In this document: piece after piece, positions 1,545 to 21,312 of the stretch
Layout: every line of letters starts with the position of its first letter
How positions within the stretch are numbered: position 1 is the stretch's first letter
DNA from: an uncultured Acidobacteriota bacterium
Lineage (GTDB): Bacteria; Acidobacteriota; Terriglobia; Terriglobales; Acidobacteriaceae
Length of the DNA: 64,000 bases
Reading direction: 5' to 3'
Assembly (NCBI GenBank): GCA_963837365.1
Contig: CAWIMW010000007.1
Span: 70,478-134,477 of the forward strand
Made by a program: the position numbers and the translations under genes
The notes under the pieces: generated by a model
What the model saw: only the letters and a program-made list of their open reading frames with translations
Database searches by the model: none
What the model was told of the DNA's origin: nothing

Positions 1545-2754
1545 TCAATTACTTACGTTCAATATCAAGCACTTAAGATAGGCTGTTTCCGGCACGTTCA
1601 ACAGAATAGGATGGTCTTTTGCCTGTCCCCGGTTTTCCAGTAAACGAATCGTTTTGTGGACATCGCGGGCTGAATCGGCCACCACTTCCATGAACTCTCC
1701 GGCGGCTGACGTGGTAGGAGCAGGAACAAGTCACCAGAATCCCGCCGGGCTTCAGCATTTTCAGAGCCCGCAGGTTTAGCTCTTTGTAGCCGCGCAGGGC
1801 AGTATCGAGGTTCTTCTTGCTCTTGGCGAAGGCGGGAGGGTCGAGGACGATGGTGTCGTACTGCTTGCCTGAGGAAGCATAGTCGCGCAGCAGATCGAAT
1901 GCGTTGGCTTCGATCCATTCAATCTCGCGCCCGGGGTTTAAGCCGATGTTGAGCGCGGCATTCTTGTCTGCGACTTCAAGCGCGGGACGGGAGCTGTCCA
2001 CTCCAGTGATCGAGGCGCAGTGTGGTGCAAGATGCAAGGCGAAGCCTCCGTGATAGCAGAAGACGTCGAGCGCCTCGCCACGGACGTACTGTGCGGCGGC
2101 GGCGTAATTCTCGCGCTGATCGAGAAAGGCCCCGGTCTTCTGCCCTTCGAGCGCGTCGTAGTGGAACTTCACGCCGTTCATGGTCACGACGGTCGCACTT
2201 TTCTCTCCCTGCACCAGCCCGGAGCTGCGCGGAGGTAACTGCTCCAGCTCGCGCACGCGGGCGTCCACGCGCTCGGCGATGGCAGCGGGGTGCAGCTTCT
2301 CGGTCAACTCGGCGAGCAGCGTCTGGCGGACCGGCTCGGCATCCATCGCCTGAGTGAGCACCTGAAACGACAGCAGGTCGTGATAGCGGTCCACGATCAG
2401 GCCGGGGAGAAAGTCACCTTCGCTGAAGATGAGGCGGTAGGCGTCGGTGTTCTGGACAACACCTTCGCGGTAGGCGAGCGCGTCCGAAATTCTCTGGCGA
2501 AGCAGCACAGGAAAATCGGAGACCGCCTCGCGCGAAACCATCCGCACGGCAATCTGCGAAGCCGTGCTGTAGAGCGCCGATCCGAGAAACTTGCCGCGCT
2601 CGTCAGCGACGCCCACCAGCGAGCCGGGCGGAACGCCCTCCGCCAAAACCACATCCGAGCGATAGACCCAGACGTGACCAGATCTAAGCCGCTCCACGCC
2701 GCGGCGGGAGATTTTGACGGTGGGGGTGGAGTGAGACTGGGGCTTGCGGGGCAT
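1545..2754 (-). pseudogene. RlmI-family class I SAM-dependent rRNA methyltransferase with an apparent 1-nt frameshift near its 3' end
   Basis: ORF 1573..2862, likely start ATG 2754 (MPRKPQSHSTPTVKISRRGVERLRSGHVWVYRSD, PUA-like). The methyltransferase core includes IVLDPPAFAKSKK and GGILVTCSCSYHVS. After HVS the track frame reads RRRVHGSGGRF... The +1 frame instead reads AGEFMEVVADSARDVHKTIRLLENRGQAKDHPILLNVPETAYLKCLILNVSN* (stop at 1545), which is the canonical family C-terminus. Confidence 0.75.
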
Positions 2755-2864
2755 GGAGAGATGGTAAACCCTAGAAAGCTTGCGAAACGCTGCCCCTGAT
2801 GAAGCGCAGCCGATCCCAATCCTGCAACCGAATAGGGGCACGGCGTTCAGCCGACCTTCCAAAA

Positions 2865-5800
2865 CTAATCAGGAAGGGAGAGCCGATCCGCATCGCTCCG
2901 CAGAAGACCTCGCTCAACCAATTCATCAGCAACTTCCAGGATGCAGTCACAAGCTTCCGCCGTCGCTCTCTCCAGACCAAACAGACGAGCCACCCCCCGC
3001 CCCAGTTCGGCTCGCAATACGCCAAATTGATCCTCAACCAAGTACAGAACCGCAAGCGAAATCTCGTCTCGGTGAATCCAATCAATCGGGCGCCTCAATG
3101 AGTTAGTTGGCATGCGGAAGGCGTTCAGGTGAGTGTCCTTTTTCCAGAGGAAATTACGCTGACGCCGTCTCTCAATTTCCTTTCTGCTCACCGCAGTGTG
3201 GACAGCTTCAGCAATGTTGGATTGCACATTTGACCCCGCTCGTTCCACCCCGCAGACATCCTTAAGGCGCTCGGCCAAGGAATCTTCGTGAATCGGACCT
3301 TCGGCCTCGACGATTCGAACCACAAGGGCTGCTAATCCACTCGAAAATCGAGTCTGGATCAAGAGTTCGCGATCAGCCGTGCCGTTAAATTTCCGATAAG
3401 GAATTCCCGGTTGATAGCGGCGCTGGGACGTCAAAGGCTCATCTTCAGGAGTTGAGACGCTTGACGTGCTGACCGTAACAGATGGCGGATCATTTCGCGG
3501 TGGTACACCTTGTACGGATTCCTCAACGGGGCGGGCCTCGGCCAGAGTCAGACTCGCGAGAACCCTTTCGATTGCGCGATCTCGATCATGGAACCACTCG
3601 GTTGACCAGACACGGTGAATGCGCCCGCGCCAACCCATGTTTTCCAATATGCTTTGCCGCAAAATATCTCGGTCGCGTGCGGTACGTGTGCTGTGGTACG
3701 TCGCACCATCGCACTCGACGGCTAACACATAGCGAGAAGGATCGCGGCGGTCTCGAATCGCCAAATCAAGTCGAAACTTGCTGGCGCCAACCTGCTCATC
3801 TACCGTCAGTCCCCGGTCGCGTAAGGCCGTTGCGACTGCATCCTCAAAATCATTGGTTTCCTCCCCTGTGGGAGCCGAAGGTGACTGAGGCAACACGCAG
3901 TCCCGCTCCGCATAAGCAATAAAGTCACGCAACGCGATTGCACCCCGATTGTTGGGACCGATTCCGCTAAGTTCGTGAGCACGGATGCTGGTCACCAGAG
4001 TGGTGTGCCATTTGGCTCGAGTGATTAGAACGTTCAGCCGACGCCAGCCGCCTTCTCGAGTTAGAGGACCGAAATTGGCAGTAACGTGGCCGTTAGCATC
4101 CTTCCCGTAGCCGACACTAATCATGATTGCATCCCGCTCATCACCTTGCACATTCTCGAGCGATTTCACGAAAAAAGGCTCATGCCCGGATGCGAGGTCC
4201 ATAAGTGGGCGAATATCAGGGCGTTGTTGGAGCGCTTCGGATATGGCGTCCTCAATAGCTTCCTTCTGCTGCACATTCATGGCAACCACCCCGAGCGAAC
4301 GGTTTGGGAATCGGGTGAAGTGTTGGATTACCAACTCCGCTACTTTGCGTGCTTCAGTTCGGTTGGTGCGACTACGTCCACGATCCCAGATACCATCCGG
4401 TACGTATACGAAGCGGACGCCCCGTCCGTCGCTGTCAGTGCATGGGGCGGGGAAGGTTACGAGTCGATTGTCGTAAAAGAACGCGTTCGAAAACTTGATT
4501 AGGCGCTCATCTCTGCTGCGGTAATGCCACTTGAGATACGCTTCCCTAAACAGAGGTACGGAAGCGACAGCATCGTCGAGCAAGGACTCTAATGGTTCAT
4601 CCGCAAGCTGATCAACTTCATCGCTTTCGTCGCCCTCATCGAGCTCAATCTGCGTTCTGAAGAAAGAAGTAGGCGGCAACTGATTGCGGTCGCCCGCCAC
4701 TACGACTTGCTCCGCTCGTAGGATGGCAGCGATGCCCTCAGGCGTCGGCAATTGCGATGCTTCGTCGAAGACCACGAGATCAAATGTGACACTTCCTGGC
4801 TTGAGGTAGGTAGAAGCCGAGATAGGACTCATTAACATGCAAGGCTTCAATGCCTGCAGCGCATGTGGTATCTCGGCGAAGAGTCTTCGCAGCGGTTTGA
4901 TCTTCTTGCGTTTTTGCAGTTCGCGACGGAGAACCGCAACCTCACTTCCGGCTAGGTTTGACTGCGCGAAGCGCAGACGCCTCGCCGACTCGGCGGCTTT
5001 TCCCTGAATATACAGGGCGACCAAGTCACGAATTGAGCTATCGAGCGATGCGAACTTCCTCACCAGGTCTTCGCGTTGCGTAGCGTTAAAGGTTGTCAAG
5101 GCATCCGACCGGGCCATCACCTCACTAATCCATAGCATGTAGACGCGGCGCTCGAATGCTTGTGGCAGGCATTTAGCGCTTATCGTGCCAAGAGCACCCA
5201 GAAATGGAGTCAACCCCGCCGAATCGCACTTCTGTAGGGTACGTTGCAGAGCGGTCCATTCCTGGACTAGCGAAAGGGCACCAAGCAACTCCGATGCTCG
5301 GTTAATGAGCGCTTTGGTGGTGGCAAACCGCGCCGAGTTGCCCTCAACGAAACCCTGCGGCCAGTAACGGTCCAATCGCTCCACTGCCTGACGAAGTACG
5401 TCAGAAAGGATTGTTGGTATCTCATGGATAGCCTGCCGAAGTGCAGCGGGAATTTCAACTCGCTGTACGGATTGCTTTTTCGTCGTCAACAACGCGGCGA
5501 CCAGCATCGCTGCTGCGCGGTATCTCTTGGCGGCCTGTGAGAGGCCTTCCGCATCGCGGATCTTTGGAGATTCACTAGAAAGTTCCGCCTGCTGCTTCAC
5601 GAAGCACTTGTCAATCTCCAGTAGACGGCAAACGATTGCGTGGGTCTGGACGGCAACAGAATGCGCAATCTTCGTTCCTCGCCTAGCGCTCCGCTGTACG
5701 CCTGACCGCCATTTCCAGTACGACGGCAGTATCCTTTGATACCGTTTCGAGAATTGCCGGACAGCGGGCAGGAGTAGCGGTTCAGCTTGTTCTGGGGGCA

Positions 5801-7586
5801 AATCGAAATGCTTCTTGTAGATCGCAAGCTGGGACTCGAAGTCCCGTTGCATGCGTGCTGCCGTTTCGAAAACGGTTGCCTTTCGCTCTAACTGCTCCGT
5901 GTCGCCGTCAAACCAGTCATGCGGTAGCCGGTCCAGAGCGGCGATTGACGCCAACGCGGGCTGAAGCCGAGTTAAGTCTTCTATTGAGAAATCGTCGGCC
6001 TCTACAACGGCTCGCAAGTGCGGAATTAGGCCCTGGATGCGATTGCCTGCTGCCAGAATTGTTCGAAGGTATTGCTCGATCTGTTCACGGTCGGAAATCG
6101 TGACTGCTGTTGCCGAAAACCCCCGCCATGGATGTCTTGCGCGGGTGTCTAGGATGCTTGCCTGTGCGCTGAGCTCACTGAGCAAATCCATTCTGTCCAC
6201 AAAGTCATCGCGCGCGACCGTCGACAGCTCGATCCAAGGAAGCGGTGTCCGCACTTCAGGAGCAGCAGAAAGCAGGGCCACTCGTCCAATCGCTTGATAA
6301 AGAGTCTTCCCTAACGGCTGCCTCACCTCGTGTAGTTCCTGGACGTAACGGTTCAAGTCAGCGCGAACACGGGTGAGCGATGTCAGTGTTTCCTCAAACC
6401 GGCCACCGTCCGACAAATCGTCGGCCTCCAGTGTTTGACGCAGTTCATCGATTATCTTGGCTTTGCCCGCTTTTGTGCTGTGGGCTTCAAGGCAGAATCT
6501 AGCTAACCCTCTTTCCTGAAGTCGCTGATGGACGACATTCAGCGCAGCCATCTTTGAACTAACAAATAGCACCTTCTGCTTTCGGCCCAGGGCATCAGCT
6601 ATCAGATTGCTGATGGTTTGGCTCTTGCCTGTTCCTGGAGGGCCGTGGATGACAACGTGCGCACCGGTCGTTCCGTAAGCTAAGGCCTCAAGCTGACTGC
6701 CATCGGCGGGAAGCACCGGGATGGGCACTGTTTTGGGGGATGGTAGATCATCCAAGCTCGTGCTGATTTCGGCTGACCCGGCCTCCAACACAGTTGCTCG
6801 TGCGAGAGCAGCAACGACCGGGTGACGTACAGCGATGTCTGCCATCGCGCTGAGGTCCTGGTAAAGAACCAGCGACTCGAAACTAAAGGTGCTTAGCCAA
6901 ACCTCCGGAGCAACCAACCATCGTTGATCTTCGACTGCTAGCTGGACAGCGTCTAAGTACCGAAGTAGCGACTCGGTAGTTGGCTCTTCCGGTATTTCAT
7001 GTAGAACTACGTGATGCCGCTCGCGAAGGTAAAGCTCCAATGCTGGGTTGAGCTGCATTTCCTCGTCAGCAAGTACAAGGCGCAGCGGTGCATTTGGTCC
7101 ATGGCTTACAACCCGAATCGGAACCATCCAAATTGGTGATAGTGATTCTCCCAACCAGTCGTCTTGCCAACTCAAGGTGCCGAAGGTGAGATGCAGAGTT
7201 GTGACACCCCGCTCTTCGACGCTGGTGCGTGCGTTGTCTTGAATGCGCCTAAGTCTGCGCGCGAGTTCCAGCGGACTCGCTGCGAATTCAACATCCCCCG
7301 GCTCGACCTCATATCCTTCCGTCTGTCGGCCACTCGCACTGTCGAACAGCGGTTGTTGGGGCCGCCGGACCGCCATCGGTAGCCGGACTTCCGCCTCACT
7401 GACGACAACTGTATTGAACAATTCGGATGCATCAGGCTTGATGATGCGTAGTTTGCTGACCCGCGAACGGTTGAGGCCCAATAGCGGGTTGCCCTTGGTC
7501 AGATCAAGCAGGCGCTCCTGCCACTTCTTGAGGTGGGCTCGTACTCTCCCTTCGTCTATTGGAGGTCCGGCGGCGTTTGCGGCCAA
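2865..7586 (-). CDS. 1573-aa DUF4011 / SF1 (Upf1-like AAA_11+AAA_12) helicase / Vsr-DUF559-like endonuclease / DUF3320 protein (Hhe-like defence candidate)
   Basis: TTG start at 7586 with AAGGAG 9 nt upstream. N-terminus LLDLTKGNPLLGLNRSR... is DUF4011-like. Walker A GPPGTGKS is at about aa 315-322 (nt ~6621-6644). Motif II VVFDEASQ is at about aa 938-945. Helicase C-terminal motifs VQGDERDAIMISVGY and LNVLITRAKW are present. A nuclease-like block LDLAIRD...YVLAVECDGATYHSTRTARDRDILRQSILENMGWRGRIHRVWSTEW lies at aa ~1270-1335. A DUF3320-like tail IVEAEGPIHEDSLAERL follows. Confidence 0.8.
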   Translation of the reverse strand: MAANAAGPPIDEGRVRAHLKKWQERLLDLTKGNPLLGLNRSRVSKLRIIKPDASELFNTVVVSEAEVRLPMAVRRPQQPLFDSASGRQTEGYEVEPGDVEFAASPLELARRLRRIQDNARTSVEERGVTTLHLTFGTLSWQDDWLGESLSPIWMVPIRVVSHGPNAPLRLVLADEEMQLNPALELYLRERHHVVLHEIPEEPTTESLLRYLDAVQLAVEDQRWLVAPEVWLSTFSFESLVLYQDLSAMADIAVRHPVVAALARATVLEAGSAEISTSLDDLPSPKTVPIPVLPADGSQLEALAYGTTGAHVVIHGPPGTGKSQTISNLIADALGRKQKVLFVSSKMAALNVVHQRLQERGLARFCLEAHSTKAGKAKIIDELRQTLEADDLSDGGRFEETLTSLTRVRADLNRYVQELHEVRQPLGKTLYQAIGRVALLSAAPEVRTPLPWIELSTVARDDFVDRMDLLSELSAQASILDTRARHPWRGFSATAVTISDREQIEQYLRTILAAGNRIQGLIPHLRAVVEADDFSIEDLTRLQPALASIAALDRLPHDWFDGDTEQLERKATVFETAARMQRDFESQLAIYKKHFDLPPEQAEPLLLPAVRQFSKRYQRILPSYWKWRSGVQRSARRGTKIAHSVAVQTHAIVCRLLEIDKCFVKQQAELSSESPKIRDAEGLSQAAKRYRAAAMLVAALLTTKKQSVQRVEIPAALRQAIHEIPTILSDVLRQAVERLDRYWPQGFVEGNSARFATTKALINRASELLGALSLVQEWTALQRTLQKCDSAGLTPFLGALGTISAKCLPQAFERRVYMLWISEVMARSDALTTFNATQREDLVRKFASLDSSIRDLVALYIQGKAAESARRLRFAQSNLAGSEVAVLRRELQKRKKIKPLRRLFAEIPHALQALKPCMLMSPISASTYLKPGSVTFDLVVFDEASQLPTPEGIAAILRAEQVVVAGDRNQLPPTSFFRTQIELDEGDESDEVDQLADEPLESLLDDAVASVPLFREAYLKWHYRSRDERLIKFSNAFFYDNRLVTFPAPCTDSDGRGVRFVYVPDGIWDRGRSRTNRTEARKVAELVIQHFTRFPNRSLGVVAMNVQQKEAIEDAISEALQQRPDIRPLMDLASGHEPFFVKSLENVQGDERDAIMISVGYGKDANGHVTANFGPLTREGGWRRLNVLITRAKWHTTLVTSIRAHELSGIGPNNRGAIALRDFIAYAERDCVLPQSPSAPTGEETNDFEDAVATALRDRGLTVDEQVGASKFRLDLAIRDRRDPSRYVLAVECDGATYHSTRTARDRDILRQSILENMGWRGRIHRVWSTEWFHDRDRAIERVLASLTLAEARPVEESVQGVPPRNDPPSVTVSTSSVSTPEDEPLTSQRRYQPGIPYRKFNGTADRELLIQTRFSSGLAALVVRIVEAEGPIHEDSLAERLKDVCGVERAGSNVQSNIAEAVHTAVSRKEIERRRQRNFLWKKDTHLNAFRMPTNSLRRPIDWIHRDEISLAVLYLVEDQFGVLRAELGRGVARLFGLERATAEACDCILEVADELVERGLLRSDADRLSLPD

Positions 7587-7689
7587 CTTACTACGCTCCT
7601 TGGACAGGCGACCGGGGGAAAGCGTATTGTACTCTGCTTCGGCGGCTTATGACTTCTCCGCGGTCGGATTGCAGGCGAGGGCACCCGCC

Positions 7690-20584: not shown

Positions 20585-21218
20585 TGTTCTTCCTCCGCCG
20601 GCTCAGGACGAAGGCCCGCCGGCGGCTTCTCACGACTCGCCGGTCAATCTTGGACCAGAATGCCTTGAAGTAATCGAAGGCGGAAACCAGAGATAGCGCA
20701 ACCATGAACCAGATGGCAAACAAGGCGATCCAATGGACCGGAAAAACATAGTTGCCGTAGACCGGCCATTCCTTCCAGCGATGGTCGAGTATCACCGCCA
20801 CAACGGAAACGATCTGCACCACCATCTTGAACTTGCCCAGCTCGCTGGCTTCGATGGTGAACCCCTCTGACGCGGCGATCGAACGCAACCCGCTGACCAG
20901 AAACTCGCGTCCAATAATAACCACCGCCATCCAGGCCGGTACCAGGCTGGGATTGAACTGGACCAGGGCGATAAAAGCGGCGGCAATCAAGAGCTTGTCC
21001 GCCAGGGGATCGAGCAGCATGCCTATAGTGGTAATCTGTCCGCGTTTGCGGGCGAGATAACCGTCAATTCCGTCAGTGATCGAAGCTGCGATAAACAAGA
21101 CCGAGGCCAAAAGCTCTTTGTGCCCGTCTAAACTGCTGAAGCGGCTGGAAGATAGGATCCAGATCAGCAGCGGGATGCTGAAGATGCGGGTCAGCGTGAT
21201 GGAATTGGGCAGGTTCAC
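20550..21218 (-). CDS. pgsA: CDP-diacylglycerol--glycerol-3-phosphate 3-phosphatidyltransferase
   Basis: GTG start at 21218. NSITLTRIFSIPLL followed by the CDP-alcohol phosphatidyltransferase motif DGIDGYLARKRGQITTIGMLLDPLADKLL. Confidence 0.9.
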   Translation of the reverse strand: MNLPNSITLTRIFSIPLLIWILSSSRFSSLDGHKELLASVLFIAASITDGIDGYLARKRGQITTIGMLLDPLADKLLIAAAFIALVQFNPSLVPAWMAVVIIGREFLVSGLRSIAASEGFTIEASELGKFKMVVQIVSVVAVILDHRWKEWPVYGNYVFPVHWIALFAIWFMVALSLVSAFDYFKAFWSKIDRRVVRSRRRAFVLSRRRKNNVSAKNDVPAT

Positions 21219-21312
21219 AGCGACGCCAAATTATCCTCCACTACACAAGGGGAAAGCAATGGAGGAAGTTGAGAACATAATCGGAAGATATGTCTATAAT
21301 TGGATTTAGGTT

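Follow-up and report, generated by a model that had tools for sequence, protein, structure and literature searches.

A PDC-S37-type helicase-nuclease gene forms a single-gene cassette at a strain-variable site in an Acidobacteriaceae genome

The gene and the domains of its product

We analyzed a stretch of 64,000 nucleotides, called the window hereafter, from an uncultured Acidobacteriota bacterium of the family Acidobacteriaceae (GenBank assembly GCA_963837365.1, contig CAWIMW010000007.1, positions 70,478 to 134,477 of the forward strand), and focused on a gene that lies on its minus strand (2865..7586) between an rlmI-like gene and a gene for a DoxX-like membrane protein and encodes a helicase-nuclease of 1573 aa. 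The open reading frame (ORF) is intact, ends with a stop codon at 2865-2867 and gives a full-length match to the PADLOC family PDC-S37. It starts with a TTG codon (7586-7584), and 9 nt before this codon the sequence reads AAGGAG (7601-7596, minus strand), a Shine-Dalgarno sequence. The starts of homologues coincide with this position (for example MAGNAAGHPIDEQRVRAHL), which supports the call of the TTG start, and because the frame is so long and has more than 5,000 homologues it is not a chance ORF. The reading frame is thus confirmed as a real, uninterrupted gene of 1573 codons with its own Shine-Dalgarno sequence and TTG start, as a preliminary description made from the letters of this DNA had proposed.

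That description had also proposed the domain order DUF4011, superfamily 1 (SF1) helicase, Vsr-like nuclease and DUF3320, and Pfam returned exactly this order with every match above its curated cut-off: DUF4011 at residues 25-187 (nt 7026..7514; this and all features of the gene given below are on the minus strand; 86 bits), AAA_11 at residues 296-362 and in a second stretch, AAA_12 at residues 1016-1199, the MTES_1575 restriction endonuclease family (PF18741) at residues 1247-1346 (117 bits against a cut-off of 38.2, covering profile positions 1-96 of 96) and DUF3320 (PF11784) at residues 1418-1456 (46.5 bits against a cut-off of 25). Neither a HEPN or other RNase domain nor a transglutaminase-like peptidase was detected in the protein with Pfam. 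Conservation was assessed by aligning the protein with 42 homologues of 47-83% identity (43 sequences) and then with 105 (106 sequences), and the fold was modelled with AlphaFold2 in two parts, residues 1-1200 with a mean predicted local distance difference test score (pLDDT) of 79.7 and residues 1201-1573 with a mean of 90.4. The SF1 motifs and the nuclease residues E-x-D-G-x-x-x-H and RDRD are invariant in the set of 43; in the set of 106 most of the catalytic motifs remain invariant and the others reach a conservation of 90% or more. Compared with the window's protein, mean identity is highest in the helicase and nuclease cores (69-78%), lower in DUF4011 (61%) and the C-terminal tail (48%), and lowest at residues 386-880 (39%).

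At the N-terminus, the model shows an alpha/beta domain that reaches to about residue 262 and has the DUF4011 match as its core. Its loop EERGVTTL (124-131) is invariant and is modelled with low confidence. When a profile of 15 sequences was compared with PDB sequences, no relative of DUF4011 was found at E values up to 10, and sequence and profile searches of the PDB found no solved structure of any member of the DUF4011 superfamily. The helicase motor follows in two parts. The N-terminal part of domain 1A (residues 296-385, nt 6432..6701) holds a Q-like motif (D295-x-S-Q298), the Walker A motif GPPGTGKS (315-322, nt 6621-6644) and motif Ia. The C-terminal part of 1A together with domain 2A (residues 881-1205, nt 3972..4946) holds motif II, DEASQ (941-945, nt 4752-4766), followed by GDxxQLPPT (965-973), HYRS (1021-1024), QGDERD (1147-1152) and GGWRRLNVxxTR (1179-1190), all invariant or nearly so. 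The complete SF1B set of motifs Q, I, Ia, II, III, IV, V and VI is therefore present, from SQ298 to RRLNVxxTR at 1182-1190. The modelled motor matches Senataxin (SETX), Dna2, Sen1, Upf1 and IGHMBP2 at a Foldseek probability of 1.0, and Upf1-like SF1B helicases were the only matches in the sequence and profile searches of the PDB.

An insert of about 495 aa, helical throughout (residues 386-880, nt 4947..6431), is set between motif Ia and motif II. The preliminary description had placed Walker A near aa 315 and motif II near aa 940, separated by about 600 mostly helical residues, and this agrees with what we found: the two motifs are 620 aa apart, and residues ~375-913 are essentially all helical in the model at a pLDDT of ~85-94. 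In an alignment with IGHMBP2, about 45 residues of the latter stand against about 500 of the protein, implying that the insert is an expansion between motif Ia and motif II. The insert is the fastest-evolving part of the protein, yet it is essentially free of insertions and deletions among close homologues. Permissive scans of separate segments gave only noise for further Pfam families in DUF4011 or the insert, and a Foldseek search with the whole model gave no confident structural match for either region, returning just helicases and low-probability matches to dynein and MukB coiled coils. Internal repeats in the insert were also considered and rejected, since self-comparisons of six sub-segments and two halves with hhalign did not exceed a probability of 9%, apart from a single higher score that arose from overlapping residues.

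The nuclease (residues 1247-1346, nt 3549..3848) is a Vsr-like domain of the restriction endonuclease fold and belongs to the MTES_1575 family. A compact block of this kind had been proposed from the strings VLAVECDGATYH (1287-1298) and RDRDILRQSILENMGWRGRIHRVWSTEW (1304-1331), both of which are present within the Pfam match. Its invariant residues are E1291, D1293, H1298, R1304, D1305, R1306, D1307 and R1310. The domain is modelled at a pLDDT of ~90 and matches the catalytic domain of I-Bth0305I (3r3p_B) with a template modelling (TM) score of 0.78, normalised to the target, and a probability of 1.00; the E value of 0.037 for this match was obtained with a multi-domain query. A poorly conserved and partly disordered linker follows (residues 1347-1390, nt 3417..3548), with a mean identity of 26% and a pLDDT below 50 at 1369-1382. 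The C-terminal tail (residues 1391-1573, nt 2868..3416), which includes DUF3320, is modelled as two or more winged helices in tandem at a pLDDT of 94-98, and its fold matches WH2-4 of SelB, the WH-B domain of cullin, MukE/JetB and AlkX/YcaQ with E values of 7e-4 to 4e-2. This model fits the earlier description of a winged helix-turn-helix (wHTH) that overlaps DUF3320 in MTES_1575 proteins (Anantharaman et al. 2013, PMC3710099).

The site between DoxX and rlmI

Comparison with a sister strain showed that the gene is accessory. The strain, which we call L024, is represented by a 260-kb contig (ENA ERZ25039533 contig_62542) that carries a DoxX-like protein 100% identical to that encoded upstream of the helicase-nuclease gene in the window. 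Its gene order is the same as that of the window on both sides of the site, with shikimate dehydrogenase ... rluD, lgt, GAF-ANTAR, S15 peptidase and DoxX on one side and rlmI, hsp20 and clpB on the other. By blastn, L024 1-10787 aligns with window 18457-7671 at 99.85% identity over 10,787 nt, and L024 12931-15708 aligns with window 2778-1 at 99.57% over 2,779 alignment columns. The window carries between these flanks a cassette of 4,892 bp (2779..7670), which in L024 is replaced by 2,143 unrelated bp. The cassette consists of the gene, 86 nt of 3' sequence and 84 nt of 5' sequence, and no other gene; its breakpoints fall in the terminator hairpin of DoxX and about 22 nt upstream of the rlmI ATG. 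Because a sister strain with flanks of 99.57-99.85% identity is without the gene at exactly the same site, the helicase-nuclease gene is demonstrated to be an accessory single-gene cassette at a strain-variable site, and the earlier proposal of an accessory gene dropped between core genes, the rlmI-like gene and the membrane protein gene, is borne out.

The cargo found in L024 (10788-12930) is of a different kind. It includes a 79-aa ORF that overlaps by 4 nt a 58-aa truncated ParE-like toxin, the latter a remnant with a Pfam E value of 8.6e-4 that lies under the gathering score. A 159-aa protein with a signal peptide and a 259-aa ORF (MALFSHYIGIDYSGAE...) without a Pfam or PADLOC match are also encoded, and a degenerate 120-bp copy of the 5' end of rlmI (83.6% identity) is present. 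None of the ORFs of this cargo matched PADLOC. The simplest guess for how the two cargos came to be exchanged is homologous recombination in the conserved flanks.

Wider comparisons agree with this picture. In three relatives with rlmI-like orthologues of 83-86% identity, rlmI-hsp20-clpB is kept as in the window, the genes upstream of rlmI are different and no DUF4011 gene is found there. No flanking gene is common to the window and the 16 homologue loci for which flanking DNA was available. Nine Terriglobales copies share no flanking gene, whereas rlmI-hsp20-clpB stays syntenic over the same distance. The position of the gene is thus not conserved, as the comparison of relatives suggested in the preliminary description would have it for an accessory gene, and the absence of a partner gene among the homologue loci upholds its description as a single-gene system. 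The composition of the gene is also unusual. Its GC content at third codon positions (GC3) of 0.572 is the lowest among the 29 long ORFs in the window (mean 0.660, standard deviation 0.041), and the distance of its codon usage to that of the other ORFs is 0.357, compared with 0.24-0.25 for the four next-longest ORFs, which is atypical for its length.

Three further observations were made on the region. First, the rlmI-like gene of the window (1573-2862, minus strand) has an extra G at ~1703 relative to L024, which shifts the frame: RlmI of L024 is intact at 402 aa, and the canonical C-terminus (GEFMEVVADSARDVH...NVSN) in the window runs on in another frame. The extra base may be an error of sequencing or assembly, or the gene may truly be a pseudogene. 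Second, a gene for a CDP-alcohol phosphatidyltransferase (window 20643-21221), the product of which is 91% identical to that of a gene at 554-1213 of another contig, L020, lies about 9 kb from rlmI in L020 and about 18 kb from it, in the opposite relative orientation, in the window; upstream of rlmI, rearrangement between species has gone beyond the exchange of the cassette. Third, a contig from the same metagenome sample as L024 (L019, ENA ERZ25039533 contig_25931) encodes a 79%-identical homologue of 1500 aa, P0005, that adjoins mnmE, yidC and dnaA. If P0005 belongs to the genome of L024, it is a different allele at a different locus.

Relation to PDC-S37, ProA and Hhe

The best match of the protein is PADLOC PDC-S37 (PDLC05009; E = 0, 1201.2 bits), in which residues 14-1568 align with positions 5-1543 of the 1550 of the hidden Markov model. 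The two are collinear from end to end, both are single genes without a conserved partner, and we detected no structural difference between them. The PADLOC-DB match to Hhe is partial (549 bits). Two curated NCBIfam equivalogs come next. Against ProA (NF058533, 'anti-phage protein ProA') the protein scored 1189.3 bits, and the cut-off is 1500. A single stretch pairs residues 14-1540 with profile positions 355-1903, which makes all parts from DUF4011 through the motor and its insert to the nuclease and tail collinear with ProA, and the protein has nothing that corresponds to the first ~350 positions of the profile. We considered a split gene in which the upstream DoxX-like ORF would hold the missing ProA N-terminus, and ruled it out, as this ORF has no NCBIfam match at E values up to 10. 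Six close homologues behave in the same way as the protein, falling below the ProA cut-off and lacking the N-terminal positions. No primary literature on ProA was found in the literature searched. Against Hhe (NF042953) the score was 797.6 bits, the cut-off being 2000, and the best stretch pairs residues 662-1348 with profile positions 1012-1682 of 1797. Longer relatives (1473-2128 aa) were considered as bona fide Hhe or ProA and rejected, five longer or more distant representatives having missed both cut-offs, as the six close homologues do. The Hhe and ProA equivalogs are narrow clades within a broad superfamily.

The preliminary description had matched the domain order to Hhe as a system from the PADLOC survey. 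Hhe is said to have been first reported by Gao et al. 2020 instead. We compared the protein with a PGAP-annotated Hhe of 1911 aa (WP_064145664.1) from a conjugative plasmid of Klebsiella pneumoniae. The order DUF4011, SF1 helicase and MTES_1575 Vsr-like nuclease was found by Pfam in both proteins, and this part of the earlier match stands. By BLASTP, only two segments align, residues 755-1346 at 38% identity and residues 105-509, which cover DUF4011 and Walker A, at 30%; the ECDG..YH motif of the nuclease is conserved in both proteins. Membership does not stand. In addition to the low profile score, the two proteins are not collinear from end to end: the central insert could not be aligned, Walker A and motif II are ~940 aa apart in Hhe against 620 here, the DUF4011 region of Hhe is enlarged, 158 profile positions being spread over residues 30-308, and Hhe has no Pfam match to DUF3320. 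The surroundings of WP_064145664.1 are also different, being of a defence and mobile kind with a type I restriction enzyme, two DUF262 genes and IS66 on the conjugative plasmid. The label Hhe given on domain order alone would therefore mislead, and on its sequence the protein is better called PDC-S37-type, related to ProA and Hhe and a member of neither.

More distant relatives share parts of this architecture. With the Upf1-like SF1B helicases (Dna2, Sen1/SETX, Upf1 and IGHMBP2) the protein shares the fold and all motifs of the motor domains; DUF4011 and the winged-helix tail are additional in the protein. Dna2 also couples a nuclease to a Upf1-like motor. The nuclease of Dna2 is an N-terminal PD-(D/E)XK domain with an Fe-S cluster, whereas that of the protein is a C-terminal Vsr-like domain. 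The giant proteins of the MTES_1575 type likewise have an SF1 helicase, then a Vsr-family endonuclease and then two wHTH domains that overlap DUF3320 (PMC3710099), but the N-terminal HEPN (Swt1/Abi2) and transglutaminase-like peptidase domains of these giants were both missing from the protein in our Pfam search.

The superfamily is very large and is spread over bacteria and archaea. The N-terminal 900 residues match 10,590 representatives of clusters at 50% identity with E <= 1e-3, and 4,023 of them with E <= 1e-30. For representatives of ~1570-1600 aa, which we call the short form, the alignment runs unbroken through the insert; for those of ~1840-1950 aa it breaks off at about residue 570 and resumes further on. 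Relatives are found in 550 plasmid records. Members of the family occur on plasmids of the haloarchaea Halomontanus and Halalkalicoccus (~33% identity, 85% coverage) and, in 108 Ralstonia records, on megaplasmids, some of which have an IS5 transposase annotated under the match. Only three phage records have a match to the family, one of them an 11.4-kb contig from human faeces that is labelled 'Bacteriophage sp.' and carries no annotation (78% coverage).

Possible functions of the helicase-nuclease

We consider it probable that the protein is a single-polypeptide helicase-nuclease directed against mobile elements, in which ATP-driven translocation would be coupled to DNA cleavage by the Vsr-like domain, with DUF4011 and the insert acting as a gate. 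While the enzyme is at rest, DUF4011 and the insert, which is large, helical and variable, may keep it in check or decide on which substrate it is loaded. Replication intermediates of foreign DNA, or changes in DNA metabolism induced by a phage, could release it, and the Upf1-like SF1B motor would then translocate on DNA with ATP, presumably 5' to 3' by analogy with solved relatives. The tandem winged helices at the C-terminus may hold the duplex, and the Vsr-like nuclease would nick or cleave the DNA and so stop the invader. What we infer in this scheme is that the protein acts against phages or plasmids, that its target is DNA, that the motor runs with the stated polarity and that the enzyme is autoinhibited; the domain architecture and intact catalytic motifs on which the scheme draws were observed directly, as were the accessory status of the gene and its place in the family.

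Several lines of evidence point to such a role. The next-best named families, ProA (1189 bits) and Hhe (798 bits), are both anti-phage. Hhe has been reported to be active against lambda, T3, T7 and PhiV-1, and the E1731A mutation in the nuclease domain of the E. coli protein abolishes its weak anti-T7 activity (10.1101/2022.06.16.496414). The invariant E1291 in the VECDG motif lines up with the glutamate of ECDG in the Klebsiella Hhe, and may correspond to the residue mutated in the E. coli Hhe, to which the numbering E1731A refers. Class II DNA-metabolism genes of T7 and g40 of Bas63 behave as Hhe triggers (10.1101/2024.10.10.617714). The turnover of the cassette between strains, beside the remnant of a toxin-antitoxin pair, is typical of defence and mobile cargo. 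In addition, an 81%-identical homologue, P0002, on another contig (1-9778 of L026; Logan SRR28624395_43859) is preceded by a defence-like run of genes according to precomputed Pfam annotation: SLFN_AlbA_2, a 1004-aa SNF2-family helicase, Metallophos (SbcD-like), a 1076-aa SMC_N/AAA_15/AAA_23 ATPase and an MPN635_N protein.

Other observations weigh against a defence role. The overall GC content of the gene is ordinary (55.6%, compared with 56.1% for the window); neither direct or inverted repeats nor a tRNA or an integrase was found at the borders of the cassette, and a search of the entire window likewise gave no tRNA. Within ~30 kb of the locus there is no further defence or mobile-element gene. 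A defence island was looked for in the window and rejected, as the 17 ORFs that neighbour the gene, to a distance of ~32 kb, are either housekeeping genes or without a Pfam match, and most contexts of the homologues are also housekeeping. The protein falls short of the curated cut-offs of both anti-phage families, judged by its profile scores, and its nearest solved relatives are mostly RNA helicases. The PDC entries are candidates predicted by guilt-by-embedding, and in one study that tested eight of them, four protected, PDC-S37 not being among the eight (10.1101/2024.09.26.614923); no experimental test of PDC-S37 or of any member of the short-form clade was found in the literature searched. 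Finally, a large DUF4011 gene is core in every isolate of P. aeruginosa and flanks a defence hotspot (PMC10250203), and a core gene in such a place could inflate the number of candidates that are called by guilt-by-association.

The main alternative is one that we think unlikely: the protein could be a genome-maintenance enzyme of the Dna2/Sen1 kind that processes flaps, R-loops, stalled forks or mismatches of the host and owes its defence label to guilt-by-association. Its relatives in both fold and sequence are Dna2, Senataxin/Sen1, Upf1 and IGHMBP2, and the Vsr fold is that of a repair nuclease. Its length is conserved, it occurs in thousands of clusters over bacteria and archaea, its neighbourhoods are housekeeping in the window and at most homologue loci, and the P. 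aeruginosa gene merely flanks the hotspot. For a core repair function, however, it is unexpected that a sister strain with flanks of more than 99.5% identity is without the gene at the site and that its position is never conserved among close relatives. The atypical GC3 and codon usage, the frequent occurrence on plasmids and the nuclease-dependent phage protection by Hhe, a characterized relative, also argue against maintenance.

A more doubtful alternative is that the motor acts on transcripts of the phage or host and the winged helices bind structured RNA as those of SelB do, with the clearing of transcripts or an arrest of growth as the outcome in place of DNA cleavage. The closest solved helicases, IGHMBP2, Upf1 and Sen1/SETX, are indeed RNA helicases, the tail resembles WH2-4 of SelB, which binds SECIS RNA, and the related MTES_1575 giants carry HEPN RNase domains (PMC3710099). 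Dna2 is, however, an equally good structural match, many of the winged-helix matches (AlkX/YcaQ, MukE and JetB) bind DNA, the Vsr, I-Bth0305I and DUF559-type domains are DNA endonucleases, and Pfam detected no HEPN or other RNase domain in the protein. That the gene is decaying cargo, no longer under selection in the strain of the window, is very improbable: the 1-nt insertion in the neighbouring rlmI shows that at least one gene nearby is disrupted in the assembly or the strain, and the codon usage is atypical, but the 4.7-kb frame is uninterrupted, every catalytic motif agrees with the invariant columns of the family, the length and both ends agree with those of homologues, and the gene has its own Shine-Dalgarno sequence.

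Returning to the anti-mobile-element reading, an extension of it can be considered, which we offer as a speculation with a low chance of being right as a whole. The short-form clade of ~1570-1600 aa would be an independent single-protein immune family in which DUF4011 and the fast-evolving insert form a new kind of sensor, built into a Upf1-like motor, that reads states of DNA metabolism induced by phages, not sequence or modification. The junction of DoxX and rlmI, for its part, would serve this Terriglobales lineage as a hotspot for cargo that varies between strains, the other cargo of which, such as the 259-aa ORF of L024, could include defence genes. Taken on its own, the junction may be a hotspot for cargo that is worth a wider survey.

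The gene opens no new category, as PADLOC already lists its family, which has two named anti-phage proteins as near relatives. It offers defined targets for mutagenesis in K321, D941/E942 and E1291/D1293, together with DUF4011, the insert and the winged helices. If the defence role is true, the gene would be a clean single-gene cassette that is swapped at a precisely defined chromosomal site in soil Acidobacteriaceae/Terriglobales, a lineage with almost no experimental phage biology, and it would represent a very large family that numbers over 4,000 clusters at 50% identity and in which the sensing parts, DUF4011 and the insert, are without structural or functional precedent.

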